DNA of 64,000 nucleotides, taken from the NCBI GenBank assembly GCA_964594295.1, contig CAZQPP010000001.1:5039-69038 (forward strand). The letters run 5' to 3'. The stretch is from an uncultured Myxococcales bacterium (GTDB lineage: Bacteria > Myxococcota_A > UBA9042 > UBA3505). Below are positions 1 through 21,255 of this stretch, one piece after another. How positions within the stretch are numbered: the stretch's first letter is position 1; each line of letters opens with the position of its first letter. Position numbers and translations under genes: made by a program. Below the pieces are notes generated by a model. It had not been told where the DNA came from. It worked only from the letters and a program-made list of their open reading frames with translations, and ran no database searches.

Positions 1-1159
1 CCGCCTCCGTGTCCAGGTGCACCAGGCCGACAAGCGCGACCGGGTTCGGAAGGAACATCATGTTCCTCTGCCGCGGCAGGTCCTTGCCGTCTTCCTCGAA
101 AGAGCAGTGCAGCGACAGCAGCGCCGCCCCGCCCGACACCGCGACGTCCGGGAGGTGTCGCAGGCTTGCGTTCGGGAAGTCCGCCTTGACGCAGTCCTGG
201 AAGCTCGGCGTGTGGGTCGTCCCGCCCGTCATCACGACGTACTGGATCTCCTCCGCGCTCACGGAGGACTCCTCGAGGATATCGTCCCACAGCCTCTTGG
301 CGATCTTGTGCGTCGCCTGCACGAGCTCGTCGTAGCGTTTCCCGTCAAGGCGGAAGCGGAGGGCCTTGTCGGAGCCCGGCGTGAAGACTCTCGGGATCGT
401 GAACCAGGTCTCCGGGTCACGGCAGAGACCGCGCTTGGCCTGGTCGACCACCTCGAGGAGCTGAGCGAGGGAGGTCGGGTGCTTCACGTCGGCCAGCGTG
501 ATCCTGTTCTCCTCCAGCACGCGCAGGGCGGTCTGGAGGACCGTGAAGTCCATCGCGTTGCCCGCCATCAGGCCCTGCTCGCCGCCCTCGGCGAGGATGC
601 GCACCCCCTTTGAGGTGTTCCGGGCGACGGCGAAGCCAGAGCCGGAGTATCCCGCGGAGACCAGAGCTATGGTCGCTGTCTCTCGCCCCCCGATGTGGCG
701 CTCGCGGAAGAACTCGGCAGCCGCGGCGGCCTCGGAGCAGAGGGCGCACCTCTTGCCGGAGGAGGCCATCGCGTTGCGGAAGGCGCCGATGACGTGGCCG
801 TCGGCCCACATGGGGTAGGCGAGCATGACGCCGTCGGTCTCCCGGCTGCCGTACTGCTCGGCGCCCTCGATCGCCTCGGCGAGGAGGTTCGCGACGAGAT
901 CCCAGGTCTCCCACTTCTGCGCGCCGAGAGCTATCGCGAGGCCCCGCTCGAGCTGCTGGCAGAGGGAAGGGAAGAAGCGGCTGGCGTAGAGGTCCGCCGC
1001 CCGCGTCGGCAGCGAGATGGGGTAGTAGCGCTTCATCACCCGGAAGGTCTCCGGGACGTTCACGACGGTGCGCTCGCCGTCCGGGTACACGTAGGCAACG
1101 CGGGGGGAGCGGGAGCCGATGTCGATACCCAGGCGGATCGGCGTGTTCTCGTCCATCAT
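1..1159 (-). CDS. Hsp70-superfamily (actin-like fold) ATPase, second paralog. Partial: the C-terminus lies beyond the window start.
   Basis: Hand translation of the minus strand from ATG at 1159-1157 gives MMDENTPIRLGIDIGSRSPRVAYVYPDGERTVVNV... It carries Hsp70 nucleotide-binding-domain-like motifs: GIDIGS (phosphate-1), LVSAGYSGSGFAV (phosphate-2-like) and VVMTGGTTHTPSFQD (adenosine-motif-like). It is absent from the ORF track because there is no in-window stop. The start codon overlaps the stop of the upstream Hsp70 gene (ATGA at 1156-1159). The plus-strand ORF 17..613 in the track is its antisense shadow. Confidence 0.6.
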   Translation of the reverse strand, partial: MMDENTPIRLGIDIGSRSPRVAYVYPDGERTVVNVPETFRVMKRYYPISLPTRAADLYASRFFPSLCQQLERGLAIALGAQKWETWDLVANLLAEAIEGAEQYGSRETDGVMLAYPMWADGHVIGAFRNAMASSGKRCALCSEAAAAAEFFRERHIGGRETATIALVSAGYSGSGFAVARNTSKGVRILAEGGEQGLMAGNAMDFTVLQTALRVLEENRITLADVKHPTSLAQLLEVVDQAKRGLCRDPETWFTIPRVFTPGSDKALRFRLDGKRYDELVQATHKIAKRLWDDILEESSVSAEEIQYVVMTGGTTHTPSFQDCVKADFPNASLRHLPDVAVSGGAALLSLHCSFEEDGKDLPRQRNMMFLPNPVALVGLVHLDTEA

Positions 1160-3324
1160 GCTCCTCCCGTTCCGCGGACGATGAGAGCTTCGTCGTCCAG
1201 CATCTCTCCGCCGTGCTGCTGCTTGAACTCCTGGAAGGCCTTGTGCACGAGGTCCATCAGCCCCATGTGAGTGACCTCGACCTGCGGGTCGCCACGAGCC
1301 ACCTCATCGCGAAGCTGCTCGGCGGCCCTCCGGATCGCCGGCCCCAGCTGGCGGTCCTCCTGGGCTATGGTGTGCTCTGCGAGCCAGAGCGCAGACGCGA
1401 CCCCGCAGCCCGTGAGCATGGTCGAGTGGAGCGCCTGCATCACCTGCTTGGCCCCTTCCCGGTCCTCCCCGAGGGTCAGGTCCTGGGCGTGCCGGATGTG
1501 GTCGTTGAGCGTCTTGCGGGCGCCGGCATCCAGGAAGCTGTCGTATTCTTGCATGAAGCCCCGCGCGTGAGGGATGAACTCCGCGACCTGCCTGACCGGA
1601 TCGTCCTTTCTCCCGGCGGCGTCGGGCGGCTCGAGGCGCCAGGTGGGAGAAGCGCCGCTGCTCGACGTGGGGTAGTTCAACGATATGAGCAGCGTCCGGT
1701 CCCGGTCGTAGGTGAAGCAGACCTCCACGGGATCCCCGGCCTTCACGTCGGGTGGGATCTGGTCGATGGTGAGCATGGAGATCAGCGTGTTGTGAGAGGC
1801 CTTGGGCTGGTCTCCCTCGTAGATCAGGATCTGCATCCTGTCCTCGCGGGGGACCTGGAAGCGCTCCGAGCTCGTGACCGGGTACATCGTGCCTTCGCCC
1901 AGGATGGCCTGGTAGGCGTCCGTGTCGCTCCCTTTCCGGTAGGCGACGCCGAGGGAGCGGGGGATCGCGGCCGAGATCTCCTTGACCCCCGCAACATTGG
2001 CATCCATGTCGGATCTGGCGTTCAAGAGCTGCGCCCGGCAGTCCGGGTTCTGGCACTCTGCAGCTTCGAGAGGGTTTCGTGTCTCGCAGGCTTCGCACAC
2101 CAGGGCGTCGAGGCCCTGTGCGTACAGGGCGGCTCCCTTGGCCACCGCCTGCATCGGGTTGTAGGCGAGGCGCACGCGCCGCACTCCGTCGGTCTCGAAG
2201 ATGGACTGGAGGAGGATGCGCACGCGGTCTACCGCGCTGCTGCCCCCCACCATCAACACCTCGGTCAGGTTCTCGGGCTGCATGCCCTGCCTCGTCAGGA
2301 ACTCGGAGAGGATGCTGTGGATGCGAGCCTCTATGGGCTTCATGATCTTCTCGAAGTCACCCTGGGTCAGGACGAGCTCATCATCCTCCTCCTCGCACTT
2401 CTCCTGGAACCACCCACCGTCCCGGGTACGGACCGAGGGGATGTCCACGTAGACCTCGGCGGTCCCCGAGGAGAGGTTGTGCTTGGCTGCCCGGGCGCTC
2501 TCGCGCAGTCTCTGCAGGAGGTTGTGGTCGTCCGGCCCTACCTGCCCGCCTCGCTCCCGGATCCAGTCGACGACGTGGTCGAGGATGCGTTGATCGATCT
2601 CGTCTCCACCGAGGAAGTTGTCCCCGGTGTAGCCGAGGATCATCATGTCGCCTCCCGCGCGCTGCACGAGGGAGATGTCCAGGGTGCCCCCGCCGAAGTC
2701 GAAGACCAGGACCCGGGACTGCTCCTCCTTGGTGCCGGCGCCCTCCGACAGGGCCGCGGCGGTCGGCTCGTCGAAGACCGCGAGGACCTTCAGGCCGGCC
2801 AGCGCGCCCGCCTGCCGGGTTGCCTTCCGCTGGTGCTCGTGGAAGTAGGCGGGCACGGTGATCACGGCGTGAGTGACGGGCGCGCCCAGCCGGGCTTCGG
2901 CATCCTCCTTCAGCCTCCTCAAGACATGGGCCGAGATCTCCTCGGGAGCGGGCAGCGACTCGCCGAGCCTCACCACGACGCCGTGCCCGCCCGTCGGGTC
3001 CTCCTCGACACGGTAGCCTACCCGCTCCCGCGCGACCTGCACCTTCGGATCATTGAAGGAGAGCCCGACGAAGCGCTTGATCGAACGCACGGTGTTCCGT
3101 GGGTTGCGCTTCGCGTTGTTCTCGGCCTCCCGGCCGATCTGGACGGTCCTGTACGAGGCGCTGTCGACCCCCTTGGGCAGGGCGACGACCGACGGCGTGC
3201 TCTCCTCGTTGTCCGAGTTCGGCAGCACCCGCGCCTGCCCGGTCTCGTCGACGTGAGCTATCAGCGAGTTCGTCGTCCCGAGGTCGATGCCAACGCGCAG
3301 CGCGTTCGGAGTCGACTCAGCCAT
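1156..3324 (-). CDS. Hsp70-family chaperone paralog (DnaK-like NBD, Cys4 zinc-ribbon insert, SBD-like beta region and helical lid)
   Basis: ORF-track 722 aa. Canonical Hsp70 motifs are present: VGIDLGTTNSLIAHV, AVITVPAYFHEHQRKATRQAGALAGLKVLAVFDEPTAAAL and LVFDFGGGTLDISLV. The insert CEACETRNPLEAAECQNPDCRAQ (C-x2-C-x11-C-x4-C) follows the NBD. There is no EEVD tail. Confidence 0.85.
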   Translation of the reverse strand: MAESTPNALRVGIDLGTTNSLIAHVDETGQARVLPNSDNEESTPSVVALPKGVDSASYRTVQIGREAENNAKRNPRNTVRSIKRFVGLSFNDPKVQVARERVGYRVEEDPTGGHGVVVRLGESLPAPEEISAHVLRRLKEDAEARLGAPVTHAVITVPAYFHEHQRKATRQAGALAGLKVLAVFDEPTAAALSEGAGTKEEQSRVLVFDFGGGTLDISLVQRAGGDMMILGYTGDNFLGGDEIDQRILDHVVDWIRERGGQVGPDDHNLLQRLRESARAAKHNLSSGTAEVYVDIPSVRTRDGGWFQEKCEEEDDELVLTQGDFEKIMKPIEARIHSILSEFLTRQGMQPENLTEVLMVGGSSAVDRVRILLQSIFETDGVRRVRLAYNPMQAVAKGAALYAQGLDALVCEACETRNPLEAAECQNPDCRAQLLNARSDMDANVAGVKEISAAIPRSLGVAYRKGSDTDAYQAILGEGTMYPVTSSERFQVPREDRMQILIYEGDQPKASHNTLISMLTIDQIPPDVKAGDPVEVCFTYDRDRTLLISLNYPTSSSGASPTWRLEPPDAAGRKDDPVRQVAEFIPHARGFMQEYDSFLDAGARKTLNDHIRHAQDLTLGEDREGAKQVMQALHSTMLTGCGVASALWLAEHTIAQEDRQLGPAIRRAAEQLRDEVARGDPQVEVTHMGLMDLVHKAFQEFKQQHGGEMLDDEALIVRGTGGA

Positions 3325-3751
3325 TGTCCTGTTCCTCCTGCTTGTCCTTCTCCACGACGACGCGGGCCACTCGAAGCACCTTCCACTCCTTCTCTCCGAG
3401 GAGCTTCATCTCGTAGCCCCGGCGCAGGACCTCGAGGATGGTCCCTGGTGCCTCGCCCGACTCCCGCACCTCGTCGATCTTGTGGAAGCGAAGGTCCACC
3501 TGCCCGCCCGGGCACCCGAAGGGGCGCACACCGTGGGAGATGAAGGCCCGGTTCGCTCTCTCGATGGCCTTCGTCACGTTCTTGTGCTCGTCGCCGGTCG
3601 CTCTCCGCTGCCACTCCTCGAGCCAGTCGACGACCTCGATCACGGCGCCGACGAGGCTCTCGTGCTCCGCGAGCGCGCTCTTGATCAGGTCCTCGGGCGA
3701 CGGCCTCGCCATCACGCCGCGCATCTCCCTTGGGTTCAGCCTAGTCACCAT
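3317..3751 (-). CDS. GrpE-like nucleotide-exchange factor (short form), putative
   Basis: ORF-track 144 aa. The C-terminal segment RFHKIDEVRESGEAPGTILEVLRRGYEMKLLGEKEWKVLRVARVVV parallels the GrpE C-terminal signature FDPxxHQA...APGxVL..QKGYxL.GR.IR.AMVxV. It overlaps the Hsp70 start by 8 bp. The real start may be the internal Met (MRGVMARP...). Confidence 0.5.
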   Translation of the reverse strand: MVTRLNPREMRGVMARPSPEDLIKSALAEHESLVGAVIEVVDWLEEWQRRATGDEHKNVTKAIERANRAFISHGVRPFGCPGGQVDLRFHKIDEVRESGEAPGTILEVLRRGYEMKLLGEKEWKVLRVARVVVEKDKQEEQDNG

Positions 3752-4151
3752 TGTGCCTCCTATCCCCGAAAACCTCGGCGGGTGCGGGCAGCCGCGGAGC
3801 CCGGTCGGTCCACTCCTCTGCCGGGAGCGGCGGCGGCTCCTTCGCGAAGGCCTCTATGAGCTCGCGTGGCAGCCTCGCCCTCCAGCCGTCCACCTCCTGC
3901 ACGGAGGGCGCCTCTCGCGACAGCGCGCCGCAGAAGACCTCCAAGACGAGCCTCTGAGGCACCGATCGCAGAGCCCGCCACGCGCCGTGGACCGCCGGGT
4001 CGTTTCGGTCCGATCGGGTCATCTTGAAGCTGGCGTCGAGCACCTCGGTGTTCGAGCTGCTCGGGCCGACGCCGAGCCGCGCGAGGGCGACGAAAGGGTT
4101 GGGACCGTCCCACGGCAGCAGCGGATCGGCGAAGAGCTTCTCGTCGGCCAT
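3741..4151 (-). CDS. Small protein, possible degenerate J-domain-like co-chaperone (HPD replaced by NDP)
   Basis: ORF-track 136 aa. The segment LARLGVGPSSSNTEVLDASFKMTRSDRNDPAVHGAWRALRSVPQR has the spacing of a J-domain (YxxLGV..A..EIKKAYRKLA.KYHPDKN....AYEVLSD..R) but lacks the His-Pro-Asp triad. Its start shares one base with the CHAT gene stop (TGATG at 4149-4153). Confidence 0.35.
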   Translation of the reverse strand: MADEKLFADPLLPWDGPNPFVALARLGVGPSSSNTEVLDASFKMTRSDRNDPAVHGAWRALRSVPQRLVLEVFCGALSREAPSVQEVDGWRARLPRELIEAFAKEPPPLPAEEWTDRAPRLPAPAEVFGDRRHNGD

Positions 4152-7100
4152 CAGCCCTCCTTCACCGGAACCGGGACCAGGGTGGGACGCGCCTGGGTCC
4201 GCCGGCCTTGCATGAGGTCGCGCAGCCGCGACAGGTCGCTGCGCAGCTCCTGAACGGTTTTGTCATCGGGATTCAGATCCGGGTTGCGCTCCAGGAAGGA
4301 GTCCCCAACCTGGATCCCCTCGCCGCAAAGAAGCCTTGCCTCCTGGTGCTTCGACTCCTCCTTCAGCTCGATGCTGCGGATCGCAGAGATCTTCAAGAAG
4401 TTGCAGACGATGTGCGGCGTCTCGAGGGCGCGCACGGCGCTGCGGAGGAGGTCGTAGGCCTGCACGTGGCTCTTGTACGCGTTGGTTATGAAGATGGCGA
4501 CATCGGCCCGCAGCTTGGCCCACGCCCTCGTGACCACGGTGCTCCCCAGCGTCGCCGGGTGCCGGACCGACTCCAAAGCGCCCGCCAGGCGGCACGCGCG
4601 AACCAGCCTGCCCTCCAACGCCTCTCCATCCTTGTCGCCGGCGCCACCCTGCTTCTCCGCGTCGTACTCGCGAGTCGCCCCGATGGCCTTGTCGGCCCAC
4701 TCGCACAAAAGCCCCTCCACGTCACCGCCGCAGCTCACCCGCCTGCCCGCCAGTCGATAGCGGAGGGCCTCGAGGTAGGCGTCGAGGTCCTTGAGCTCTC
4801 GCAACGCCCTCTTTGCCGTCGAGAGCCGGGGTGTGCTGCGAGAGAGCTCTCGCCTGAGCTCCTCGAAGATCCGGCGGCCCGCCAGCATGGCTACGTGCGC
4901 GGAGAGCACGCGGCCCCGCTCTTCGTCCCGAAGGTTCGCGTGGAAAGGAAAGCGCTCGCCAAAGTCAGGTGCGTCGAGGAGCTCGTTGGCTCCTTCGCCC
5001 ACCTCCCCTTCCTCGAGCCGATCGGGGTCCGGCAGCAAGGACTTCGGGTCCTCTCCCCCCGTGCTCCCGAGGAGCGAGCCGAGCTCCGAGAATGAGAAGA
5101 CCAGGTCGTGGAAGGTCTCTACCGTCATGCGCTGGGCGAAGCGCACGTACTCGGCCTTCGACATCACGAGGAGCTCGGTGTAGACGCCGCTGAGCTCCTC
5201 GGCGACGGCGCCCAGGTAGCCGAGCCGGCGCGCAAGCTGGAAGCCCATGGCCGTCCCCCCGGGCACGGACTCGAGCGCGCTCGAGCTGCTCACGCCGAGC
5301 ATCTCCTGCTCGTCCAGGGCCCGCAAGCGGCGAACGAGCTCCAGGTCTCCCGTCCGGCTCTCGTGCTCCGCGAGGCAGTCGCCGAGGAGACCGGCCAGTC
5401 GGTCCTTGACCACCTCGACCAGCTCCCCGAGGTCGGCGGGGCGCGGCAAGCCGTAGACGTCGAAGCGCTGCCCGACCCAGGCGCGGACGCCGGACCTGCA
5501 ACCCCTCAGGGCGCCCAGGAGAGCGATGCACCGGTGGTAGAGGTCCTCGAAGAGCCCAGGATCGTCCGTGAGCGAGGCAGCGTGCAGGCAGATCAAGTAG
5601 GCTCCGCGAAGCCCCTCGAGCTGGACGAGGGGGCGCGTCGACTCCAGCGACGGGGCGACGCCGGCCCAGGCCTCTTCGACGGCCTCGCTGACCCTCCCTC
5701 CAGCCGCCAGCACCGCCACGCGGTCGGCGGGGGCGAGGCCCTCGAGGAGGGCGTCCGGCACGCACGTGGCGCCTTCCGCGACAGCCTCGAAGAGCGCTCG
5801 CAGCGCAGCGTTTGCGGCGGGTGGGTTCGTCGCCGGCAGGAAGGTGGCGTCTACCTCGAGCCGTGGCTTCGGCTTGCTCAGCCGGCGCAGAGAGCCTTGC
5901 TGCAGGCGCTTGGTGCGCGGAGAGTCGTGAGAAGGCGTCAGCTTCAGGATCTCCCCGGCGCTCATGCCGGGGTGGGCACCGGCCGCGGAGAGCACGAGGT
6001 AGTCGTGAGGAGCGTCGAGGGAGCGGCCGAGCTGGATCGGCGCCACCTCGTTGAGCATCACGGAGGCGAGCTCCGGCGGCAGGGAGGCGAGATCTGTCGC
6101 CTCCGAGTCGCTCGCCGGAGGTGCGGAGGCGAGGTAGGACTCCAGCCCGGCCAGGTCGTCGGGGATGTCTTGCCCGGCGCCGTCGGAGCTCCGCTCACCC
6201 GAGAGCCAGCGCAGCAGCTCCGCGCGCGCCCCGGGGAGCAGCAGCTCGGCGGACGGCCGGGAGGCTCCGCTCAGGCGCTCCAGGACCCGCGAGCGCAGGC
6301 TCTCGGTGAGGGCGGCCAGGCTCGCCTGGAGCCGATCGCGCTCCTCGTCGCTCAGCTTCGCCGCAGGCTCCGCCGACAAGAGAAGGTCCTCAGCGATGCG
6401 CAGGGCTCGCACGACCTCGGCCAGGTCCTCCGGCCCCTCCGCGTTGTCGATCTCTCTGCCTCGCTCCGCCAGCCACCCGCTCAGCTCTACGGCGTAGATC
6501 TCCCCGGCCAGGTCCGGCAGCGCCCCTCCGGGTTGCCCCGGCCCGAGCGAGCCGGCACGGACGAGCTTGGAGCACGCCTCGGGGAGCCTCGGCAGGGTAC
6601 CCGAGGACACGGCCGCGAGGTCTCCGAGAGCATCGACGCCCAGGGACACCGACTCGCTCAGGCGCCCGTGAAGCTCGCGCAGCAGCTCAACCTTGCGCCG
6701 TCCTCCGCGCGGATCGACGGCCACCGCCCCGGCGGTCCCGGGCAGGTCCGGGATGCGCTTGCTCCAGGCATCAAGCAGAGCGCTCCAGTTTCGCGCCGGC
6801 CGCGCGGCTTGGAGCTTGATGTCATCCTCGAGCTCGCCCAGGCTGGCCCGCAGCGCAGAGACACGGTCTGTCTCCTCAACGAGCTTCTTGGCACGCGCGG
6901 CGATGGGCGCCGACGGGCTGGACACGTAGCCCTTGAGGATCTGTAGAGCGCGCTTGGTGTTCCCCTCGTTCGCGAGCTGAATCGCCCTGTCGAAGACCTG
7001 CACGTCGCCTACGTCGAGGAGGGGAGGCAGGCTGGACGGGACGTACATGACGGGCAGGAACCACTCCGGCTCGCCGGCGAGGAAGAGCTCTTTGAGCGCG

Positions 7101-8053
7101 AGCCAGAAGGCGATCTCGGCGTGCCGGGCTCTTGGTCCCGATGGGTCGAGGAGGGCACGGTAGAAGTGCCGGAAGAAGGTCTGGAGCGTCTCGCGCTGCA
7201 TCCGGTCCACGAGCCCCACGACCCTGGCGCCCGGCAGGCGCCGGGCGATCTCGAAGGCGAGCGGGCTCGAGTGACACACCCCCAGCACTACGAGGCGCAC
7301 GTCCTTCAGAGCGGCCAGCCGCTCCGCGAGGACATGGTGCTGCACCGTGTTCGCGTGATCCTCCAGCCCGTGCAGCGACACCACATCGGGAGCGCGATAG
7401 CCGTGGGCCAGCACGTTGACGACGTGCCAGGTCGGGTCCTTGCCCGCCAGGGCCTCGAGCTGGGAGAGGGTGTCCTCTCCCTCGACGACCTTGTTGCAGG
7501 CTCCGGAGCCACCCAGGGCGCGGTGGGCGGCGCCGATCTCCTCCACTATGGGCTTGCAGTCGAAGCGTTCCAGCGGGGGGTCGCACGCGAGGGTCAGGGT
7601 CTTGAGAGGGCTCTTCTCCAGCTCGAGCACGGGTGCCGGCTCGCCGTGGACACCGCGCAGCAGCACACCGCCGGTCGAGACGAGCGGACGCTTCCGCTCG
7701 TCGATGGCGGCCTCCCACGCCACCTGCTCCAGATCCCGCCAGGCATCCTCCGCGGATCGGGGCGGGCGCAGCACGAAGGGGACCACGCCGTCCCCCTTCG
7801 GACGCCCTGCGATCGCGCAGGTCGAGGCGTGGATCCGGGCGCCGAGGCGGTGGAGGCGCTTCTGCTCGGTGGCCTTCAGGTCGCCGCACCACGCCAGCTC
7901 GGCCACGCTCGCGCTCTCCTCGCGGAGCTCATCGAGGTCGGCCTCGAGCAGCACCTCGAGCCCACGAACATCTCCCTCGTGGACCTCGTATACCGCCCAG
8001 CCGGGCCGGACTCGGCGAAGGACCAGCTCGACCGGCGACCCGAGCGCCTTCAT
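4151..8053 (-). CDS. CHAT-domain (caspase-like Cys protease) protein with a long C-terminal helical/TPR-like region
   Basis: ORF-track 1300 aa. The N-terminal ~330 aa carries the CHAT His/Cys dyad contexts HVVNVLAHGY and RLVVLGVCHSS. The rest is helical repeats. ATGA overlap with the upstream TPR gene at 8050-8053. Confidence 0.8.
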   Translation of the reverse strand: MKALGSPVELVLRRVRPGWAVYEVHEGDVRGLEVLLEADLDELREESASVAELAWCGDLKATEQKRLHRLGARIHASTCAIAGRPKGDGVVPFVLRPPRSAEDAWRDLEQVAWEAAIDERKRPLVSTGGVLLRGVHGEPAPVLELEKSPLKTLTLACDPPLERFDCKPIVEEIGAAHRALGGSGACNKVVEGEDTLSQLEALAGKDPTWHVVNVLAHGYRAPDVVSLHGLEDHANTVQHHVLAERLAALKDVRLVVLGVCHSSPLAFEIARRLPGARVVGLVDRMQRETLQTFFRHFYRALLDPSGPRARHAEIAFWLALKELFLAGEPEWFLPVMYVPSSLPPLLDVGDVQVFDRAIQLANEGNTKRALQILKGYVSSPSAPIAARAKKLVEETDRVSALRASLGELEDDIKLQAARPARNWSALLDAWSKRIPDLPGTAGAVAVDPRGGRRKVELLRELHGRLSESVSLGVDALGDLAAVSSGTLPRLPEACSKLVRAGSLGPGQPGGALPDLAGEIYAVELSGWLAERGREIDNAEGPEDLAEVVRALRIAEDLLLSAEPAAKLSDEERDRLQASLAALTESLRSRVLERLSGASRPSAELLLPGARAELLRWLSGERSSDGAGQDIPDDLAGLESYLASAPPASDSEATDLASLPPELASVMLNEVAPIQLGRSLDAPHDYLVLSAAGAHPGMSAGEILKLTPSHDSPRTKRLQQGSLRRLSKPKPRLEVDATFLPATNPPAANAALRALFEAVAEGATCVPDALLEGLAPADRVAVLAAGGRVSEAVEEAWAGVAPSLESTRPLVQLEGLRGAYLICLHAASLTDDPGLFEDLYHRCIALLGALRGCRSGVRAWVGQRFDVYGLPRPADLGELVEVVKDRLAGLLGDCLAEHESRTGDLELVRRLRALDEQEMLGVSSSSALESVPGGTAMGFQLARRLGYLGAVAEELSGVYTELLVMSKAEYVRFAQRMTVETFHDLVFSFSELGSLLGSTGGEDPKSLLPDPDRLEEGEVGEGANELLDAPDFGERFPFHANLRDEERGRVLSAHVAMLAGRRIFEELRRELSRSTPRLSTAKRALRELKDLDAYLEALRYRLAGRRVSCGGDVEGLLCEWADKAIGATREYDAEKQGGAGDKDGEALEGRLVRACRLAGALESVRHPATLGSTVVTRAWAKLRADVAIFITNAYKSHVQAYDLLRSAVRALETPHIVCNFLKISAIRSIELKEESKHQEARLLCGEGIQVGDSFLERNPDLNPDDKTVQELRSDLSRLRDLMQGRRTQARPTLVPVPVKEG

Positions 8054-10998
8054 TCGCTACCTCCCGGGCTGCCGTCCGCCCAAGCGATGTCCGAGCGCAC
8101 TCCGGCGATCAGAGGATGAGTGGGCGACCTGCGCGCGGCGATCTTCACGAGCTTCCTTGAGGTCATAAGGTGATCCTCGCCCTCGTCCACGCCATCTGAC
8201 ACCGCCCTCGCCAGGCACTGCGCGAGCACGAGGCACAGCGTGGAGTCCCGACGGGGGCTGAGAGCATACACGGTCTTCAGCAGCTCGGCAGCCTGGGCAT
8301 ACCTGCCCTTGAGCCTCAGGCGCAGCCCTTTGGCGAGCAGCTTGGAGACGGGGTCGTCGGCCTTCCACAGGGGCTTGTGGAGCTCCAGCTCGGCGTTCGC
8401 TATGCACAGCTCCGGCTCGTTCGGGTGGCGCGACACCGAGGTGGCCAGCGATCGGCGGAGCGCCTCGTAGGCCTCGAGGCCCACGGCGCCCGCATCGTGT
8501 CTCGGCCCTGCCGTCGCCGCCAGAGCGACAGCCACGGCGGCGCGCTGAACGAGCACCCGGGGATGGGTGGCGTGCTCTCCGAGCCCATCCAAGAGCGCGG
8601 CCGCCTCCTCGAACCGGCGCCCAGCCACCAGCTCACGGGCTCGTTCCAGCGCGCCGGTCGCCGCCGCCGGCGCCTCGGGGAGCCCCGGGGGCGGTGAGCT
8701 GCGGATCTCCACGACCTCCGAGAGGGGCACACCCCAGCCTACCACCTGAAGGGCTCGCTCGAGGTTCTTCACCTCCTCGTCGTCGCGCGCGCTGCGCTTG
8801 ATGCTCTTCACCGCCTCCCTCGCACGGTCCAGGAGCCTGTCCGCTTCCGCGGTGAGGCCGGCGTCCCTCGCCTCTTGGGCACACATGAGGAGGCTGAAGG
8901 TCCAGCTCGCCCCGGCCTGGGTGTCGTGCGGCTGCGCCCGCCACGCCGCCTGGTACTGGTCGGCCGCGTCCTGGTGACGACCGCTGTTGCCCAGCCGATA
9001 GCCGTAGCGCGCGAGGCTCCGGTGGTAGGTCGCCTCGAGACCGGGGATGCCGGTGTCGAGCGCCGTCTTCAGGAGACGCGTGGCCAGGGAGTCCGCGGCG
9101 AGAGAGTCGCGCTGCGCGAGCTGCTCGTCCTTCCCGATCAACAGCCTCGACAGGCGCTCCCGGGTCTCGGACTCCACGCCGAGGGCCACGGACTCACCGA
9201 TGGCCGCGCGCAGCATCTCGCTCACCTGCTCCACCTCGACGTCGGCGCTCAGGGAGGCCTTCAGGGCAGAGACTCCCACGTCCGAGCACAGGCGCGCGGC
9301 ATCCTGACGCAGGGCCTCCGCTGGGTCCGGCAAGCCGGCGAAGCCGAGGTTGAGGCGCTCGATCTCCGCTCGGTCCGCATCCGCTGGAGGCATGTACCGC
9401 ACGAACACGGCGAGGGCCGCGCGCCGGGCCGCCTCCCAGTTTCCGGCCGCGCGGTGGGCGTTGGCCAGGCTCAGCTCCGAGAACCAGCGGCGAAGGTCGG
9501 TGTCCTCCGCCACGCCCTCGTCGGGCAGGTCGATCCCGAACCTCCTGACGAGGGCGCGAAGGCGCTCGTCGGGCGGAGGCCTCCTCTCCTCCGAGGCGCT
9601 GTTCACGAAGTAGCTCCGGAGCTCCTCGAGCCCGGCGACTCTCTCGGCGAACAGAGGCCCGAAGCCGACGCGCGTTTTCCCCGCACCCGAAGACACCTGC
9701 GCCGCCTCGGCGTCCCAGACGGCCCGGGCGGCCATCAGCTCGCGGATCAGCTCGACGTGCAGCTCCGAGAGGGCCGCCGCCGCCTCCTCGTCCCCCCGGC
9801 CTTTGGCGTCGGCGATGGCGTTTGAGATCACTCGCTCAGCGTGCTGCTCGGCTCCCTGCCGGGTACCGTCGACGAAGCCGTCGTAGGGCTCGTCGCTCCC
9901 GTAGACCTTGAGCCGCTCCAGCACGAAGGCGCCCACCCAGCGGGGGTTTGCGAGGAACACCGACACGTGGGCGATGAAGTCCCGCCAGGCGTCGGCGTCA
10001 ACGGTGGGCAGCGAGCGGTGGGCCCGGATGAGCGCGAGGACGGCCAGGGTCCGTATGATGGTGGGGTTCCACGCGTCGGCGGCCTCCGCCTCGGCCAGCG
10101 CCTCGTATGCGCGGTCGTGGTCACCGCGGCGACCATACCAGGCGGCGACCTCCAGGTGATGCGCGTCGCGCGAGGGCGCGCTCGTCCCTATCCCCACCAG
10201 CCCGCCGACCAGGTTCCTGATCGAGGAGCAGTCGGCGTCTGCCGGATCGAGCACCGCGACGGCGTCCTCGAAGCGGCCGAGCAGGGAGAGCTCGCCGGCC
10301 AGCCTGTGCTGTAGCCACCGGCGGATGGGGGCACGATGACGCGCGCCCTCGAGCGCCGCGGCCAGGGCTGATGCCCGCTCGGCGCGGGTCGGGCGCGTCA
10401 TGGCCAGGAGCGCCCGATCCAGCCCCTCTCCGCTCTCCGAGAGGTGCCCGGCCGCGCGGCGTGCGGTGGAGATGTCTCCCTGCTTGAGAGCGCTCAGCGA
10501 GATCGCGCGCCACAGGTGGTCGACCTTCGGACGCGAAGGTGTGCCGATTCCAGGTTGCCGACCTTGCGTAGCAGGGCTTCCGTCCGGCGAGGCCGCGTCG
10601 TCTCGGGACGGCCCAGCCGATCCCGGCAAAGAGCCCTGGACAGGCTCCTGGCGACGGCGCGCAGCCTCGAGACCTTCGAGCGTCGTGGCTGCCTCGGACA
10701 AGCGGCCTTCCGCCACACACTCCTCACAGTGAGCGATCCGCGCCTGGTCCAGGGCAGGGCCGGCGGCTTTGGCCCCCGCGTCGCTCAGGTCCTCCCACGC
10801 CTCCAGGGCCTTCGCGTGCTGACCGGCCCTCCACAGCGCGAGGCCGGTCGCGTAGGCGGTCGCGTCCGAGCGCTCGTCAGATGCCAGGCCGGAGAGACAC
10901 TCGATCACGGCCAGCAGCTGTCCACCTTCGGCGCGAGCCGCGTCCTCGAGCAGCTCCACGATCTCGGGGTCTGTCGGCCAGGTGTGCGCGGCGCTCAT
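8050..10998 (-). CDS. TPR-repeat protein (~982 aa)
   Basis: The ORF track extends to 11403, but the first 135 residues are Arg/Gly/Pro-rich frame shadow overlapping the upstream gene. ATG at 10998-10996 (MSAAHTWPTDPEIVELLED...) overlaps the upstream stop TGA 10995-10997. The body is rich in TPR-like A/L/Y/W helical repeats (e.g. AYATGLALWRAGQHAKALEAWEDL). Confidence 0.7.
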   Translation of the reverse strand: MSAAHTWPTDPEIVELLEDAARAEGGQLLAVIECLSGLASDERSDATAYATGLALWRAGQHAKALEAWEDLSDAGAKAAGPALDQARIAHCEECVAEGRLSEAATTLEGLEAARRRQEPVQGSLPGSAGPSRDDAASPDGSPATQGRQPGIGTPSRPKVDHLWRAISLSALKQGDISTARRAAGHLSESGEGLDRALLAMTRPTRAERASALAAALEGARHRAPIRRWLQHRLAGELSLLGRFEDAVAVLDPADADCSSIRNLVGGLVGIGTSAPSRDAHHLEVAAWYGRRGDHDRAYEALAEAEAADAWNPTIIRTLAVLALIRAHRSLPTVDADAWRDFIAHVSVFLANPRWVGAFVLERLKVYGSDEPYDGFVDGTRQGAEQHAERVISNAIADAKGRGDEEAAAALSELHVELIRELMAARAVWDAEAAQVSSGAGKTRVGFGPLFAERVAGLEELRSYFVNSASEERRPPPDERLRALVRRFGIDLPDEGVAEDTDLRRWFSELSLANAHRAAGNWEAARRAALAVFVRYMPPADADRAEIERLNLGFAGLPDPAEALRQDAARLCSDVGVSALKASLSADVEVEQVSEMLRAAIGESVALGVESETRERLSRLLIGKDEQLAQRDSLAADSLATRLLKTALDTGIPGLEATYHRSLARYGYRLGNSGRHQDAADQYQAAWRAQPHDTQAGASWTFSLLMCAQEARDAGLTAEADRLLDRAREAVKSIKRSARDDEEVKNLERALQVVGWGVPLSEVVEIRSSPPPGLPEAPAAATGALERARELVAGRRFEEAAALLDGLGEHATHPRVLVQRAAVAVALAATAGPRHDAGAVGLEAYEALRRSLATSVSRHPNEPELCIANAELELHKPLWKADDPVSKLLAKGLRLRLKGRYAQAAELLKTVYALSPRRDSTLCLVLAQCLARAVSDGVDEGEDHLMTSRKLVKIAARRSPTHPLIAGVRSDIAWADGSPGGSE

Positions 10999-13400
10999 CG
11001 GAACAACAGCCTCGTCTGCCACATCCACGTCTCGCCTCCGCTGAGGCGGAGGGTCTTCGTCCCGTCGCCAAGGTCGAGGGACGCCGCGTCCGCGCCCGCG
11101 ATCCGGGAACCCGGTTGCTCGGAGGGCCGGGCGCCGGGGTCGAGCGTCACCCCCGCCGCTACCCCATCTCTCCACAATGGCGGTGCCGTGTCCCGGGCGG
11201 TGACCAGCAGCGAGATCAGCCACGCGCTGGTTTGCTCCGGGTGCTCCTCGCGGAGGGCCTGGCCGTCGGGGAAGGATGTCCAGCGGCCCTGCTCGATTCG
11301 GAGGCCCTTCCGCGGGTGACCCAGCGCTCCGAATCCGTCGACCTCCCGGACCACCCCGTCGCGGTCCAGAGCGGCCACGAGCAACAGGGCGTGGCACCTG
11401 CACGTGGGGCGAACGAGCACCTTGACCATCCGTCCCCGCTCGACGCTGGCGCCCGGAGCGACGCCCTCGAAGCCGTCACCCGAACCTACGGCGAGGGCGA
11501 CGTCGACCGCCGCGCCTGTCGTCTCCACGTCCCCGACGCCATCGCCGGGATCGATCCGGCTCCCCCTCAGCAGGTCCAAGGCCGCCGGCGCCGAGGGGCG
11601 CTTGGTCGGCTTCTTCGCTCCGAGCCTCTGGAGCAGAGGGCCGAGCGGCGGAGGCAAGCCCGCTCCGGGGCCACGGGCAGTCTCGGTTGGTCCCCTGGCG
11701 GGCATCTTCGGGACCTTGCCGGTCGCCAGGAAGTGCATCGCCGCGGCCAGGCTGTAGACGTCGGCCGCCGTGCTCCGGCGGCGTTTGGACGTGAGCTCGG
11801 GGGCGGCGAAGCGGCAATGCGGCAAGGCCCGGGCCGTCGTGCCGGCCTGCGCCAGGGCGAGGCCGAGATCGGCGAAGGACGCCCGCCCGTCCTCCGAGAC
11901 GAAGACATCACCGGGGGAGAGAGAGCCCCACGTGAGCTCCCCGTCGTGGAGCCTGGCGAGACCCTCGAGCAGATCCTCCAGCCACCGCAGGACCTCGGCA
12001 CATGAGGCCCGGCCGGCGCGCTCTAGCGCGCAGCCTCCGGAGACGTCGTCGAGGAGCACGAAGAGACCTCCCAGGCCGTCTTCGCCAGGCAAGGCGTGCA
12101 CCAGCTCCGGAATGCTCGACACTCCCAGGTCGGTGTTTGCTCGAACACGCGCATCCAAGGCCTCCGGGTCGAGGGCGCTCCGGTCGAGGAGGCGGACCAC
12201 GACCCTTCGGCGGCGCAGGTTCGCGTCGACCACGCGCCAGGCGCGGACATCGGGGTCGTCGCGGAGGGTGGCGCCCACCTCGAAGTGTGCTCCGAGCGAC
12301 TGCGCCACCTCGTGGGGCACTGCCAGGTCTGCGCAATCGGGCCCCAGCTCGCATATCCCGATGCTCCGCCTCCAATCACGGAGCCAGTCCTCGAAGGAGC
12401 GCGCCTCGTTCCCCCCGGCGGCGTCGCCGGGCCGGGTGCCGTGCTCGTCGTGCTTCGACACGTGGTCACGAACCTCCACGTAGTCGAGGGGCTTGCCGGC
12501 ATTCCAGAAGAGGAGAGACCTCTCGCCGCCTCCGCTGTCTCGGCCGTCATCCACCCTGAGCAGCAGGCCGACAGGCAGGGCCTTGGTCGCGGAAGGGTCC
12601 AAGATGTACACGCGACCGGGGCGCAGCCCGGCGGTCTCCGGCCAACGCAGCTGTGTCGCCGCCTTGGCGGCGAGGCTCTCGCTGCCGACCAGCAGTCGGA
12701 TGCGCCCCTCGAGGCGATCGTCGTGCTTGCCGAACCTGATCTCGTCCACCACGAAGGGGCGGTACGCTCTAAGCCAGCGGAGAGACTGGAGCGTGGCCTT
12801 GAGCGCGGCGGCGAAGCCCTCGACGTAGAGACGCCGGGGTTCTCCTCTCAGCGGCGGGTCGTGACTCCACGTGTTCCGGAGCTGCACCAGCAGGTCGAGC
12901 TGGTCGTGTCCTGATACGCTGCGCCCCTCCTCGTTGAGCACCGCGTCGTGGAACATCCACCGCGGCGCCTCGGGGACGAAGGCATCGGGCCTGGCCTGGA
13001 GCGACGTGGCGAGGTTCCGCAGCAGGCCCAGCAGCTTGCCGAGGAGCGGTTTCCGCAGGTCGACCCAGCTCGCCTCGACCTCCTCCGAGGGTGCTCCTCG
13101 CAAGTAGTCCGGGAGGAGCGTGACCAGCAAGGTTCGCAGCAGGACCTCCACGGCCCCCACGAGTGACTCTGCCTGTGCCTCGGGAGCTCCGTTCCCGGTG
13201 ACAATGACGTCCCGGACCGCGACCGCCAGGGGCATTGGCAGGGCAGCGACAAGTGCCTTGTCTCGTCCTGGATCCCAAGCTGGCATCGTCTTCGGCAGCC
13301 CCAAGAATAGCGCATGGGTGTTGGCGTGCGGACTATATCGGCCGAGGCGGATCGGCACCAGCGGCGCCACTTGCCGGAGCCGGGTGCCGGCCCTGACCAC
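10995..13400 (-). CDS. HEPN-like (RNxxxH) N-terminal domain fused to a degenerate Ser/Thr kinase-like (pseudokinase) domain plus a C-terminal region of unknown fold
   Basis: ORF-track 801 aa from GTG 13400. The likelier start is ATG 13286 (MPAWDPG...), which has a TATAGT -10-like hexamer upstream. The N-terminal ~250 aa is paralogous to the N-terminus of the 36147 protein (shared LLPDYLRGAP and LVQLRNTWSHD versus LIELRNEDAHG, i.e. an R-x4-H motif). The kinase region has DLG and APE-like motifs, but the HRDLKPxN box reads WGSLSPGDV, so the catalytic Asp and Lys are lost. Confidence 0.7.
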   Translation of the reverse strand: MVRAGTRLRQVAPLVPIRLGRYSPHANTHALFLGLPKTMPAWDPGRDKALVAALPMPLAVAVRDVIVTGNGAPEAQAESLVGAVEVLLRTLLVTLLPDYLRGAPSEEVEASWVDLRKPLLGKLLGLLRNLATSLQARPDAFVPEAPRWMFHDAVLNEEGRSVSGHDQLDLLVQLRNTWSHDPPLRGEPRRLYVEGFAAALKATLQSLRWLRAYRPFVVDEIRFGKHDDRLEGRIRLLVGSESLAAKAATQLRWPETAGLRPGRVYILDPSATKALPVGLLLRVDDGRDSGGGERSLLFWNAGKPLDYVEVRDHVSKHDEHGTRPGDAAGGNEARSFEDWLRDWRRSIGICELGPDCADLAVPHEVAQSLGAHFEVGATLRDDPDVRAWRVVDANLRRRRVVVRLLDRSALDPEALDARVRANTDLGVSSIPELVHALPGEDGLGGLFVLLDDVSGGCALERAGRASCAEVLRWLEDLLEGLARLHDGELTWGSLSPGDVFVSEDGRASFADLGLALAQAGTTARALPHCRFAAPELTSKRRRSTAADVYSLAAAMHFLATGKVPKMPARGPTETARGPGAGLPPPLGPLLQRLGAKKPTKRPSAPAALDLLRGSRIDPGDGVGDVETTGAAVDVALAVGSGDGFEGVAPGASVERGRMVKVLVRPTCRCHALLLVAALDRDGVVREVDGFGALGHPRKGLRIEQGRWTSFPDGQALREEHPEQTSAWLISLLVTARDTAPPLWRDGVAAGVTLDPGARPSEQPGSRIAGADAASLDLGDGTKTLRLSGGETWMWQTRLLFR
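13332..13337 (-). promoter_or_regulatory. -10-like hexamer TATAGT (minus strand) upstream of the probable ATG 13286 start of the seven-gene operon
   Basis: The minus-strand sequence cggccgaTATAGTccgcacgcc lies ~46 nt upstream of ATG 13286. There is no convincing -35. Confidence 0.25.
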
Positions 13401-13539
13401 TGACTCCGTGGCACCCCGCGGATGCTCCGCCGGGAAGGGCTCGATCTGTCCGAGAGACGATCAGACCGCCTTGCCGGTGTGGATCTGACCGGGACCTCGA
13501 GCGAAGGCTGCCGGTAGGCTCAGCCATTCGCACGGCCGA

Positions 13540-13556
13540 TGGACAGCAACTGTCCA
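13540..13556. promoter_or_regulatory. Perfect 7-bp inverted repeat TGGACAG-caa-CTGTCCA upstream of the operon, candidate regulator binding site
   Basis: Read directly at 13540-13556, in the 300-bp gap between the SGNH hydrolase gene end (13703) and the operon start. Confidence 0.25.
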
Positions 13557-13702
13557 CGAGCGCTCACAGCTTCCCGGGCGGCGCTCGCTCCCCGATCTCG
13601 AGCTCCTCGATCGCCAGGGCCGGCGTCAGCGCCAGGATGTCGTCGTCGTCGGTGCCGATGCCGGTGTCGAGGATGACTCGGTTCTTCTGCGAGAGACCGG
13701 CA

Positions 13703-15019
13703 TCAGGGTGCCTCGAGCGACAGCCCGGAGTCCTTCAAGAGCGCTGCGAGCAGCACCTCTGCGAGCCTCTCGTAGCCGCGCCGGGTGAAGTGCACGTGGT
13801 CCGGCGCCGCCATCGGCGGCTTCGCCTTCACCCACGACGGCATGGACATCGGGCCCCCTTGAAAGGCGACCAGATCGAAGAAGCCGCAGCCGGCTTCGGC
13901 GCTGACCTCGCGCTGGACCGCGATGATATCCTGGGTGCGCTGCCGGGGTAGCCAGGTGCCCTTCTTGCCCTTGATCGGCCTGTCGGAGGGGCCGATCAGC
14001 AGGCACGAGGCCTCCGGCACGACCTGGCGGATTCGGGCTACCACGAGGCGCAGGTCCTTCTCGTACCTTGGGATCGGCACGTTCTTGTCACCGGACTCGT
14101 TGGTGCCGTAGGCGAGGACCACGAGGTCGGGGCGGCGCCATGCGAGCTGCGCGCGGTAGAGGCGATCGTTCCAGAGCAGGTGGTATCGCGCTCTCGAACC
14201 GCGAATGCCGAGGGTGTCGACGACGACGCCAGGCTCGTCTCTCTCGAGGACCAGGCCGAAGAGGCGGATGAGCCCGTCCCCGAGGGGGCGCACCTCGAAG
14301 CTGTGTTCGCCGTCGTCCACGTCCATGAACATGAAGCCCGGCTTCACCTCGTCGGCCCTGGTGTTCAAGCGGTACACAGGATTCCCGTCGATGCTCACGT
14401 CGAGCTGCCCGCCGGGCGGGCCGCGCAGGTAGAGGAGCGCGTAGCGGCTCACCTTCCGGCCGACGGGGCTCTTTTTCGGCGTCACCACTCGGCCGAAGTC
14501 CTCCTTCGAGCTCGACTCCACCGTAACGCCCGCCATGCCGAAGTAGCCCACGGTCTTGCTCGACGCCCCCACTTGAAAGCTGCGCCAACCGCCGGAGCTG
14601 CTGACTTCGACATCGAGGTGCCGGTAGTACTGCCAGGGCTTGACCGGCATCACGAAGCCGTGACCCGCGTCGCCGAAACGTTGCTGAAGCTTGCGCCGGA
14701 TGTGGCCGGTGAACCAATCCGTCGAGGTGTGTGAGGCACCGAAGAAGAGGAGGCGAGCCTTTCCCGCTCCGGCGGATGCGCGCCAGAGAGCGCGGTGGAG
14801 GTTGTGCAGGGCTCGGCCGGAGGGGTCCTTGATGGGGATCTCGACGCCGAGGACCGGCTGCTCGGCGGCGGAGGCCTTTCGCGAGGGCCCGGCGGCCGCG
14901 GCGTGCGTTGACGGTGTGAGGACGAGGAAGAGGAGCAACGAGGTCACGACGGCGGTCGCCGTTCTCCCCGACGCCGCGGTCCACGGTCTGCTCCGGTTCA
15001 ACGATACGTCGCGTAACAT
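13703..15019 (-). CDS. Secreted SGNH/GDSL-family hydrolase
   Basis: ORF-track 438 aa. N-terminal signal-peptide-like stretch (AVVTSLLLFLVLTPSTHAAAAG). SGNH blocks FFGASHTS (I), AYGTNESG (III) and DHVHF (V). Confidence 0.75.
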   Translation of the reverse strand: MLRDVSLNRSRPWTAASGRTATAVVTSLLLFLVLTPSTHAAAAGPSRKASAAEQPVLGVEIPIKDPSGRALHNLHRALWRASAGAGKARLLFFGASHTSTDWFTGHIRRKLQQRFGDAGHGFVMPVKPWQYYRHLDVEVSSSGGWRSFQVGASSKTVGYFGMAGVTVESSSKEDFGRVVTPKKSPVGRKVSRYALLYLRGPPGGQLDVSIDGNPVYRLNTRADEVKPGFMFMDVDDGEHSFEVRPLGDGLIRLFGLVLERDEPGVVVDTLGIRGSRARYHLLWNDRLYRAQLAWRRPDLVVLAYGTNESGDKNVPIPRYEKDLRLVVARIRQVVPEASCLLIGPSDRPIKGKKGTWLPRQRTQDIIAVQREVSAEAGCGFFDLVAFQGGPMSMPSWVKAKPPMAAPDHVHFTRRGYERLAEVLLAALLKDSGLSLEAP

Positions 15020-21150: not shown

Positions 21151-21255
21151 GGCGTGACGTGCAAGGTGGCCACGCCGGACCCTGCTGGCAGCTCCTCACA
21201 CGGAGCGCACGTCGGAAGCGCTGCAGGACACCTGAGACCGGCCCAACGAGCCGAA

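Follow-up and report, generated by a model that had tools for sequence, protein, structure and literature searches.

Why would a bacterium keep an Hsp70, a second Hsp70-like ATPase, a GrpE-type factor and a J-like protein in one operon with a caspase-like protease? The locus that raises this question lies at the left edge of a 64,000-nucleotide (nt) stretch of contig CAZQPP010000001.1 from an uncultured Myxococcales bacterium (hereafter ‘the window’, meaning the whole stretch analysed), with its gene block within positions 1-13400; our calls are made from predicted proteins and sequence. We suggest that the operon, which comprises nine genes in full, is a predicted conflict system, most likely one that works by anti-phage abortive infection, and put the probability of this general scheme at roughly 0.55. 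We read it as a conflict system because a constant core is combined with swappable TIR-type modules that sit on a constant adaptor. The parts of the operon that lie within the window are as follows (aa, amino acids; ORF, open reading frame; NBD, nucleotide-binding domain):

10995-13400, minus strand: g1, candidate variable-effector gene, 801-aa ORF from GTG
8050-10998, minus strand: g2, predicted 982-aa TPR-like alpha-solenoid scaffold
4151-8053, minus strand: g3, 1300 aa, with a putative N-terminal divergent CHAT/caspase-like protease domain
3741-4151, minus strand: g4, 136-aa J-domain-like protein without HPD
3317-3751, minus strand: g5, 144-aa short GrpE-type nucleotide exchange factor
1156-3324, minus strand: g6, 722-aa full Hsp70
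1-1159, minus strand: g7, NBD-only Hsp70 paralogue, running off the left window edge
13401-13702, minus strand: intergenic region upstream of g1, presumed operon promoter region

The initial annotation had described seven co-directional genes on the minus strand, linked by overlapping stop and start codons, and within region 1-13400 all seven ORFs are present and all six junctions read as claimed. ATGA overlaps lie at 10995-10998 (g1/g2), 8050-8053 (g2/g3) and 1156-1159 (g6/g7), a TGATG overlap at 4149-4153 joins g3 to g4, and the two remaining junctions are overlaps of 11 bp at 3741-3751 (g4/g5; ATGGTGACTAG) and 8 bp at 3317-3324 (g5/g6; ATGGCTGA). The description of a seven-gene operon holds for the window, but not for the operon in full: identical sequence on a JGI metagenome contig (L004) carries g7 complete, at 468 aa, and downstream of it a YbjN-family gene (203 aa) and then a paralogue (215 aa), such that the operon is one of nine genes, seven of them inside the window. 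At the other end, a gap of ~300 bp separates the g1 ORF from an unrelated upstream GDSL-lipase gene (stop at 13703), and we presume that the operon promoter lies here, in 13401-13702; a promoter scan found no sigma-70 consensus upstream of g1, and in a scan of 1-14200 neither terminator-like nor promoter-like sites exceeded shuffle expectation. An ATG at 13284-13286 (Met39) lies inside g1, with TATAGT upstream of it at about 13333-13338, and judging from the sequence this ATG is the likelier true start (763 aa) rather than the GTG at 13400.

Is this set of genes a unit, or an accident of one genome? Related loci were found by three routes, starting from the CHAT protein, the short Hsp70 and the J-like protein; for g3, a word-indexed search gave a single relative and an exhaustive HMMER (phmmer) search gave 27. 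Wherever a locus is covered the gene order is constant: gene 1, TPR, CHAT, J-like, GrpE, long Hsp70, short Hsp70, YbjN, YbjN'. Synteny in other genomes had been set beforehand as the point on which the proposal should stand or fall, and one-to-one orthologues occur in this order in no fewer than eight distinct lineages, whose proteins are 30-50% identical to those of the window; the arrangement is, for this reason, far beyond chance. Carriers include a metagenome-assembled genome (MAG) of Thermoguttaceae (Planctomycetota; locus L003, the same as L001, and the sole match in a scan of genome contigs) and a Terracidiphilus MAG (Acidobacteriota; L016). In the latter the nine genes have clean borders on both sides, being bracketed by unrelated genes on the opposite strand, and the unit is thereby delimited. 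The family is nonetheless small: the CHAT protein falls into ~12 clusters of 1229-1404 aa at 50% identity (1.84 billion representatives), and the short Hsp70, at 90% identity, into no more than six, out of 5.8 billion proteins.

The nature of gene 1 is central to our reading. In the window its product divides into three parts:

12861-12878, minus strand: R-N-x3-H motif of the g1 N-terminal helical region (HMM or PDB-sequence match, none)
about 11565-12287, minus strand: g1 candidate pseudokinase (hidden Markov model, HMM, matches)
10998-11492, minus strand: g1 conserved C-terminal domain, shared with other loci, after a flexible linker

The initial annotation had proposed a pseudokinase here, and the central region bears this out. 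It scores 30.9 bits against Pfam PF00069, just under the cut-off of 31.7, and matches the defence-associated kinases NCBIfam MAD6 (E=2.5e-14) and PADLOC PD-T4-6 (E=3.8e-15), as well as MkoA and PglW. The beta3 Lys position reads VVVR, HRD has become WGS and DFG has become DLG; since the Gly loop, the beta3 Lys and the HRD Asp are all missing, the region is, by its motifs, a pseudokinase. The HEPN domain proposed for the N-terminus fared less well, in that it comes down to one weak motif, RNTWSH at residues 175-180; the pattern R-x4-H occurs in 84% of shuffled versions of g1 and the stricter R-N-x3-H in 1.6%. Residues 1-250 have no Pfam match at E<=10, all NCBIfam and PADLOC matches fall in the kinase-like region with none in the N-terminal region, comparison of the N-terminus with PDB sequences gave chance-level matches only, and a composite-profile homologue search (g1 N-terminus, C-domain and J-like protein together) returned only a g1 fragment.

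At other loci, the N-terminal module of gene 1 is a different one: the helical region plus pseudokinase of the window is replaced by DUF4062 in L001 and in L011/L016, and by TIR_2 in L018. Common to all gene-1 variants, to the last residue, is the C-terminal domain of ~150 aa, with a low-complexity linker before it. Gene 1 is thus best seen, from these comparisons, as a swappable effector module. The initial annotation had thought of a caspase-like, and possibly RNase, effector; a slot that takes TIR or DUF4062 elsewhere suits a swappable module better than an RNase specifically.

A second source of effectors appears between the GrpE and long-Hsp70 genes, where two loci (L001 14117-16262 and L009 5886-7949) carry an insert of TIR and TIR-like domains, as two genes in L001 and as a single fusion in L009. 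Over its N-terminal domain, of ~130 aa, this insert shows homology to the helical domain that ends the long Hsp70 (1159-1602 in the window; hhalign 99.1%, E=1e-18), and both carry the motif GCG[IV]AS.L[FW]LAE.T[IV]A. This homology implies, at the level of sequence, that the TIR insert and the long Hsp70 have a docking module in common.

Variable effectors also invite a different explanation, namely that the operon is an addiction module akin to toxin-antitoxin-chaperone systems, with gene 1 as toxin and a core component as labile antitoxin, stabilised by YbjN/Hsp70 and degraded by CHAT, the whole serving to stabilise a mobile element. YbjN proteins are peptide-binding chaperones, and chaperone-dependent toxin-antitoxin systems with antiphage roles do exist (bioRxiv 10.1101/2024.02.24.581848). 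However, the short Hsp70 and the CHAT region have no match on 72,556 plasmids, a result on which we rejected plasmid carriage; the locus in the Terracidiphilus MAG sits among ordinary chromosomal genes; and nine genes over about 14 kb is far beyond any known toxin-antitoxin module. We regard this explanation as highly improbable, and note that it overlaps functionally with a conflict system and does not exclude one.

We turn now to the core, and to whether its protease and scaffold are what they seem. The CHAT assignment for g3, made with an intact His/Cys dyad in the initial annotation, is borne out by its relatives and by a structural model:

about 7034-7621, minus strand: g3 putative CHAT domain, with the His217 codon at 7403-7405 and the Cys260 codon at 7274-7276 (model and homology)

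Taken whole or as residues 1-353, g3 itself has no Pfam match, and the gathering score of PF12770 is not met; its L001 orthologue comes close in the stretch that holds the His and Cys, scoring 21.5 bits with Pfam CHAT where 24 are needed (E=1.8e-4), and PF12770 is matched by 17 of the 27 relatives from the phmmer search (best E=1.3e-25). His217 and Cys260 are conserved in at least 90% of the 27 relatives and are invariant in the 12 relatives of 1229-1404 aa. In an AlphaFold2 (AF2) model of residues 1-353 (predicted local distance difference test, pLDDT, 47), consecutive core strands, at 211-215 and 254-258, lead directly into His217 and Cys260, respectively, an arrangement that fits the caspase-haemoglobinase fold; Foldseek places SAVED-CHAT (8tl0; E=4e-6) at the top of the matches to this model, followed by caspases 4/11/6, MALT1 and DdvA. 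A CHAT profile of g3 gave only chance-level matches to PDB sequences. We accept g3, from homology and modelling, as a putative divergent CHAT protease with an intact His/Cys dyad, carrying a helical C-terminal region of about 950 aa. Within this ORF, ARAGORN called a 70-nt tRNA-Ser(GGA) at 5606-5675 (minus strand), very probably a spurious call in GC-rich coding DNA; with Rfam, the entire window yields no tRNA at gathering score. The neighbouring g2 gives weak Pfam matches to TPR_14, TPR_19 and ANAPC3, and the TPR protein expected here is supported through its L001 orthologue, which is 32% identical over the full length (E=9e-97) and lies above the Pfam TPR_19 threshold; an orthologue is present in every locus that reaches this position.

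The chaperone genes pose a more pointed question, that of whether they could run an Hsp70 cycle at all. Their domains are laid out as follows (SBD, substrate-binding domain):

3933-4118, minus strand: g4 folded core (J-like fold)
2116-3294, minus strand: g6 NBD, catalytically intact by motif (DnaK alignment)
2038-2097, minus strand: g6 CxxC...CxxxxC zinc ribbon in the place of the interdomain linker (DnaK alignment)
about 1645-2007, minus strand: g6 SBD-beta-like domain (DnaK alignment)
1159-1602, minus strand: g6 family-specific C-terminal helical domain in the place of the lid (DnaK alignment)

Three of the four proteins had been assigned correctly. The 144-aa g5 scores 35 bits with Pfam GrpE (PF01025), where 25.8 suffice, and aligns to model positions 61-165 of 165, which is to say the four-helix-bundle and beta-domain part only, the long N-terminal helix being absent; its orthologues match GrpE in all loci (50.5 bits for that of L001). 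The full Hsp70 with a zinc-ribbon insert, g6, matches Pfam HSP70 (PF00012) at 327.8 bits (cut-off 20.6; E=1.4e-97), and the CxxC...CxxxxC ribbon is seen in the alignment to DnaK, where it takes the place of the VLLL linker, which g6 does not have. GIDLGTTNS, K70, E171, DFGGGTLD and VGGS are all retained, and g6 is, on these motifs, predicted to be ATPase-competent. The second, NBD-like Hsp70 gene, g7, is open at the left edge of the window, which holds the first 386 of its 468 aa, and matches Pfam HSP70 at 43.8 bits (against the same cut-off); it has a truncated subdomain IB, no SBD and, as its phosphate-2 motif, SAGYSG (SAGY[ST]G in the family) in place of DxGGGT, and is probably a weak or inactive ATPase to judge from its motifs.

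For the 136-aa g4 the proposal of a J-like protein is upheld in fold, but not in function-defining sequence. Neither Pfam, even at E<=10, nor PDB sequences gave a match. A seven-member alignment shows a J-domain-like pattern, and in hhalign it runs collinear with J-domains (P=0.0033, score 20.0, with reference J-domain sequences entered by hand); none of 100 column-shuffled controls reached this score (maximum 15.5) and the reversed alignment scored 7.8. At the place of HPD the window protein has TRSD, and its relatives have T/S-P-D-D, R-P-E-E or A-D-A; a His never occurs, so that HPD is missing in every member. By these criteria g4 is a predicted J-like fold protein and not a bona fide J-protein. 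In DnaK-DnaJ, HPD contacts the NBD/linker interface, and D35 of DnaJ pairs with R167 of DnaK (complex 5nro, and genetics of the two residues). The equivalent of R167 is Ala in all five long-Hsp70 members aligned (residue 182 of g6 in the window, 2770-2772, minus strand). As HPD, the VLLL linker and the R167 equivalent have all been lost, a canonical J-Hsp70 cycle in this operon is unlikely, and the joint loss suggests a remodelled, non-canonical partnership between Hsp70 and J-like protein; it also suggests that the two sides of this interface have co-evolved.

Genes 8 and 9 complete the set. Matches to PF10722 (YbjN) are recorded in L001, L004, L005 and L006, and the two genes are paralogues of one another (hhalign 99.3%, E=4e-20); YbjN proteins are related to peptide-binding chaperones of the type III secretion system (PMC9503650). 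In L017 a gene for an FKBP-type peptidyl-prolyl isomerase (11948-12442) stands right after the second YbjN-like gene on the same strand, and may have joined the chaperone set in that lineage only. The short-Hsp70 family carries a short hydrophobic post-NBD motif, VPGLVxL, within a variable tail (ALVGLVHLD in the window, at 11-37 on the minus strand, g7 residues 375-383; compare L001 18586-19953); speculatively, this could be a built-in client-like peptide for the SBD of the long Hsp70. The C-terminal tail of the long-Hsp70 family is loosely conserved, and an EEVD-like docking role for it would be equally speculative.

If the J-Hsp70 interface is lost, might the two paralogues not be chaperones but an actin-fold polymer or scaffold, nucleating a TPR/CHAT/effector complex by assembly dependent on nucleoside triphosphate (NTP)? 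Multimeric tubulin/Hsp70 assemblies have been suggested as STAND analogues in GTPase-centred systems (Kaur et al. 2020, PMC7159879), and the absence of HPD and of VLLL, the change of R167 to Ala and the degenerate catalytic motifs of the NBD-only paralogue would all suit such a role, as would the matches of g6 to MreB/actin-like models. The last of these are, however, the generic actin-fold signal of any Hsp70 NBD; g6 keeps a complete SBD-beta and all ATPase motifs, and the strict conservation of a GrpE and a J-fold protein beside it is sensible only for an Hsp70-type nucleotide cycle. We therefore consider a polymer quite unlikely.

A bolder reading of the same machine has somewhat more to commend it, and we offer it tentatively, as a possibility that we do not favour: that sensing or switching is done by the private Hsp70 machine itself, in a previously uncharacterised immune class, with its ATP cycle licensing CHAT to release TIR-type or other death effectors. 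The Hsp70 could serve as a decoy for the host DnaK, which many phages turn to their own use, or as its guard; alternatively, it could monitor the proteostatic stress of infection. If this were true, the operon would parallel in bacteria the way in which chaperones license NLRs and caspases in eukaryotes.

For the conflict system that we favour, we propose a speculative scheme of events. The gene-1 protein would be the effector, and its C-terminal domain the ‘handle’ by which the core keeps it in check; the YbjN proteins and the SBD of the Hsp70 might serve as holdases. An infection cue would be sensed by the TPR/helical repeat surfaces, or through perturbation or titration of the dedicated Hsp70, and would set in train an ATP- and GrpE-dependent Hsp70 cycle, by which the complex is remodelled and the CHAT protease licensed; CHAT might then cut the gene-1 linker, or an inhibitory partner, so as to free the active effector. 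In the TIR versions the output would be a loss of NAD+ or a signal, and in the window version an effector activity that is possibly that of an RNase. We further suggest that the chaperone step, by consuming ATP, may set a threshold that keeps the system from firing by accident, an idea put forward for MoxR-vWA systems, and, by analogy, that the NBD-only paralogue could pair with the full Hsp70, NBD-to-NBD in an Hsp110-like manner, as a regulator and not as an enzyme. Precedents for such a scheme are the Hsp70, GrpE and NBD-only Hsp70 of other conflict systems (PMC7159879), caspase-like protease/EACC1 modules with DnaK-like fusions (PMC12642450) and the sensing of phage by bNACHT25, which depends on DnaJ (PMC12169576).

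Several observations weigh against this scheme. The trigger, the substrate of CHAT and the direction of control (chaperone to protease, or the reverse) are all inferred. With no HPD in g4, and neither a VLLL linker nor an R167 equivalent in g6, a normal J-stimulated cycle is doubtful. Confidence in the AF2 model of the CHAT region is low (pLDDT 47), and the N-terminus of g1 in the window has no recognisable enzymatic domain by Pfam (E<=10) or PDB sequences. PADLOC-DB v2.0.0 matches only the kinase-like region of g1, with none for the CHAT protein, the J-like protein, GrpE or either Hsp70; finally, the family is rare, and every locus comes from metagenomes or MAGs.

What, then, of the company that the operon keeps? 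The window is a dense defence island, with the following neighbours:

16313-26736, minus strand: vWA (CobT_C-type, 622 aa), MoxR-like AAA_5 (990 aa), HEAT-repeat (1302 aa) and AAA_5/AAA_3 ATPase (477 aa) genes
26806-31824, minus strand: Tubulin_2 (PF13809), Macro and protein kinase domains, 1672 aa
32043-39911, plus strand: TIR_2, NACHT-type (NPHP3_N) and WD40, 1347 aa, bacterial NLR-like; then kinase and WD40, 1254 aa
43081-48309, minus strand: HEAT-repeat protein, 1742 aa
48342-50870, plus strand: DNA polymerase III alpha-type gene
51506-53998, plus strand: TrwB-like coupling-protein domain
56129-58534, plus strand: GmrSD_N type IV restriction
61477-62790, plus strand: Peptidase_M48 and TerB

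The first of these sets looks like a MoxR-vWA ternary conflict system (Kaur et al. 2020). The Tubulin_2-Macro-kinase architecture of the second is unusual, and its kinase domain is apparently active; tubulin-like proteins are another hallmark of GTPase-centred conflict systems.

These surroundings bear on a more prosaic explanation, in which the operon has nothing to do with immunity and is dedicated instead to folding, assembly or regulated proteolysis, the Hsp70 set folding and assembling the giant TPR and CHAT proteins, and these in turn carrying out proteolysis for developmental or stress signalling. Chaperones typically have large repeat proteins among their clients, DdvA (8rw5), a CHAT-containing anti-sigma factor, is among the fold matches of the CHAT region, gene 1 of the window is a pseudokinase with no proven toxic domain, and the core has no PADLOC match. 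Set against this are the TIR or DUF4062 modules of gene 1 elsewhere and the extra TIR effectors that have been inserted; the swapping of N-terminal modules on a constant adaptor, which is a hallmark of conflict systems; the position of the locus within a defence island; and a distribution that is sporadic and rare across phyla. On balance we think a non-immune operon unlikely.

Hsp70 is the most studied of all chaperones, and we know of no Hsp70-centred immune system that has been characterised experimentally. The one prior record that our searches brought up is a computational remark that Hsp70/GrpE genes accompany some GTPase conflict systems (PMC7159879). The operon offers a compact, testable case, having a clear protease dyad, a clear ATPase, swappable TIR effectors with a readily measured NADase output and natural variants. 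It could reveal how a chaperone cycle becomes an immune threshold or sensor, and what roles are played by an HPD-less J-like protein and an NBD-only Hsp70; for the mechanism of Hsp70 itself it is of interest that the Hsp70 linker, the R167 equivalent and HPD have been lost in concert. It also provides a test of a bacterial parallel to the immune receptors and caspases that are licensed by chaperones and TPR proteins in eukaryotes.

How does the operon compare with systems already known? With canonical DnaK-DnaJ-GrpE it has in common the complete catalytic motifs of the NBD, an SBD-beta, a J-fold partner and an exchange factor of the GrpE family. It differs in that its Hsp70 has a zinc ribbon for VLLL, Ala for R167 and a helical domain for the lid, in that its J-like protein lacks HPD as well as the glycine/phenylalanine-rich (G/F), zinc-finger and client-binding domains, and in that its GrpE is without the long N-terminal helix and there is an extra, NBD-only paralogue.

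On the protease side, TPR-CHAT (Csx29), of the type III-E CRISPR Craspase, combines, like the operon, a caspase-fold CHAT with TPR-like repeats, in a role predicted to be the activation of defence by proteolysis, and SAVED-CHAT (8tl0), which belongs to signalling of the CBASS (cyclic-oligonucleotide-based anti-phage signalling system) type, resembles g3 in its caspase-fold CHAT and His/Cys dyad and is its best structural match. Unlike either, the operon has, from its gene content, no CRISPR, SAVED or cyclic-nucleotide component; its CHAT is N-terminal on a 1300-aa protein and falls below Pfam CHAT, its TPR protein is separate, and its predicted regulator is an Hsp70.

In eukaryotes, TPR/Hsp70 co-chaperone systems activate clients, as exemplified by Hop, CHIP, SGT1-HSP90 (for plant NLRs) and Hsp70-Hsp110. 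The likeness to these Hsp70/Hsp90-TPR and Hsp70-Hsp110 systems, by analogy only, is that an immune or death effector could be licensed by an Hsp70 together with a TPR protein and a paralogue with an exchange or regulatory role; only folds are shared, and the operon has no EEVD motif.

Among predicted and known conflict systems there are closer parallels. MoxR-vWA ternary systems (Kaur et al. 2020) resemble the operon by functional analogy, in that an ATPase chaperone and co-chaperone threshold swappable effectors, often together with peptidases of caspase-like or other kinds, and one such vWA/MoxR/HEAT set lies 3 kb upstream of the operon in the window; those systems are built on AAA+ and the operon on the actin/Hsp70 fold, and the operon has no vWA protein. 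The type III CoCoNuT protein CnuD is likewise a case in which a defence operon has taken in an Hsp70-like NBD/SBD (Bell et al. 2024, eLife; PMC11090510), but it occurs with McrB/McrC homologues, as a fusion or a pair, its Walker-like motifs are degenerate, RNA binding is predicted for it, and neither GrpE nor J accompanies it (PMC11090510). With no McrBC at our locus, we rejected CnuD as the family of the operon's Hsp70. Modules of EACC1 with a caspase-like protease have been found fused to a DnaK-like domain about 50% identical to DnaK (bioRxiv 2025.11.14.688446; PMC12642450); these share with the operon the linking of a caspase-like protease to an Hsp70-family domain in defence, and the logic of an effector gated by proteolysis. 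The fusions, however, come without GrpE, J-like, NBD-only or YbjN proteins and have the EACC1 pore former as effector, whereas in the operon the genes are separate and the effectors are TIR, DUF4062 or pseudokinase modules.

The closest theme is found in GAP1-N2 GTPase systems, which are predicted to act in conflict and of whose neighbourhoods about 14% contain an Hsp70, a GrpE, an SBD-less Hsp70 and DnaJ/TPR (Kaur et al. 2020, eLife; PMC7159879); there, the Hsp70 theme has been read as NTP-dependent thresholding or assembly (PMC7159879). The operon is alike, by gene set, in its full Hsp70, its GrpE, its Hsp70 without a peptide-binding domain and its J or TPR partners. It is unlike it in adding CHAT, two YbjN chaperones and a slot for TIR, DUF4062 or pseudokinase modules, and in having J-like and TPR as separate proteins; taxa found to carry it are Planctomycetota and Acidobacteriota, whereas the theme is reported in actinobacteria and firmicutes. 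The hallmarks of GAP1-N2 systems, namely the GTPase (DO-type), GAP1 and FNIII, have no match in the nine genes (window, L001, L015/L016 and L017/L018; Pfam only). The initial annotation had not recognised the gene set as a described defence system, and indeed no published description was found in the literature searched, with subscription journals outside reach; the theme of Hsp70, GrpE, an NBD-only paralogue and DnaJ/TPR is, however, a known one (PMC7159879). The operon is probably an undescribed variant of the NTPase-chaperone-thresholded, protease-containing conflict systems, and not something categorically new.

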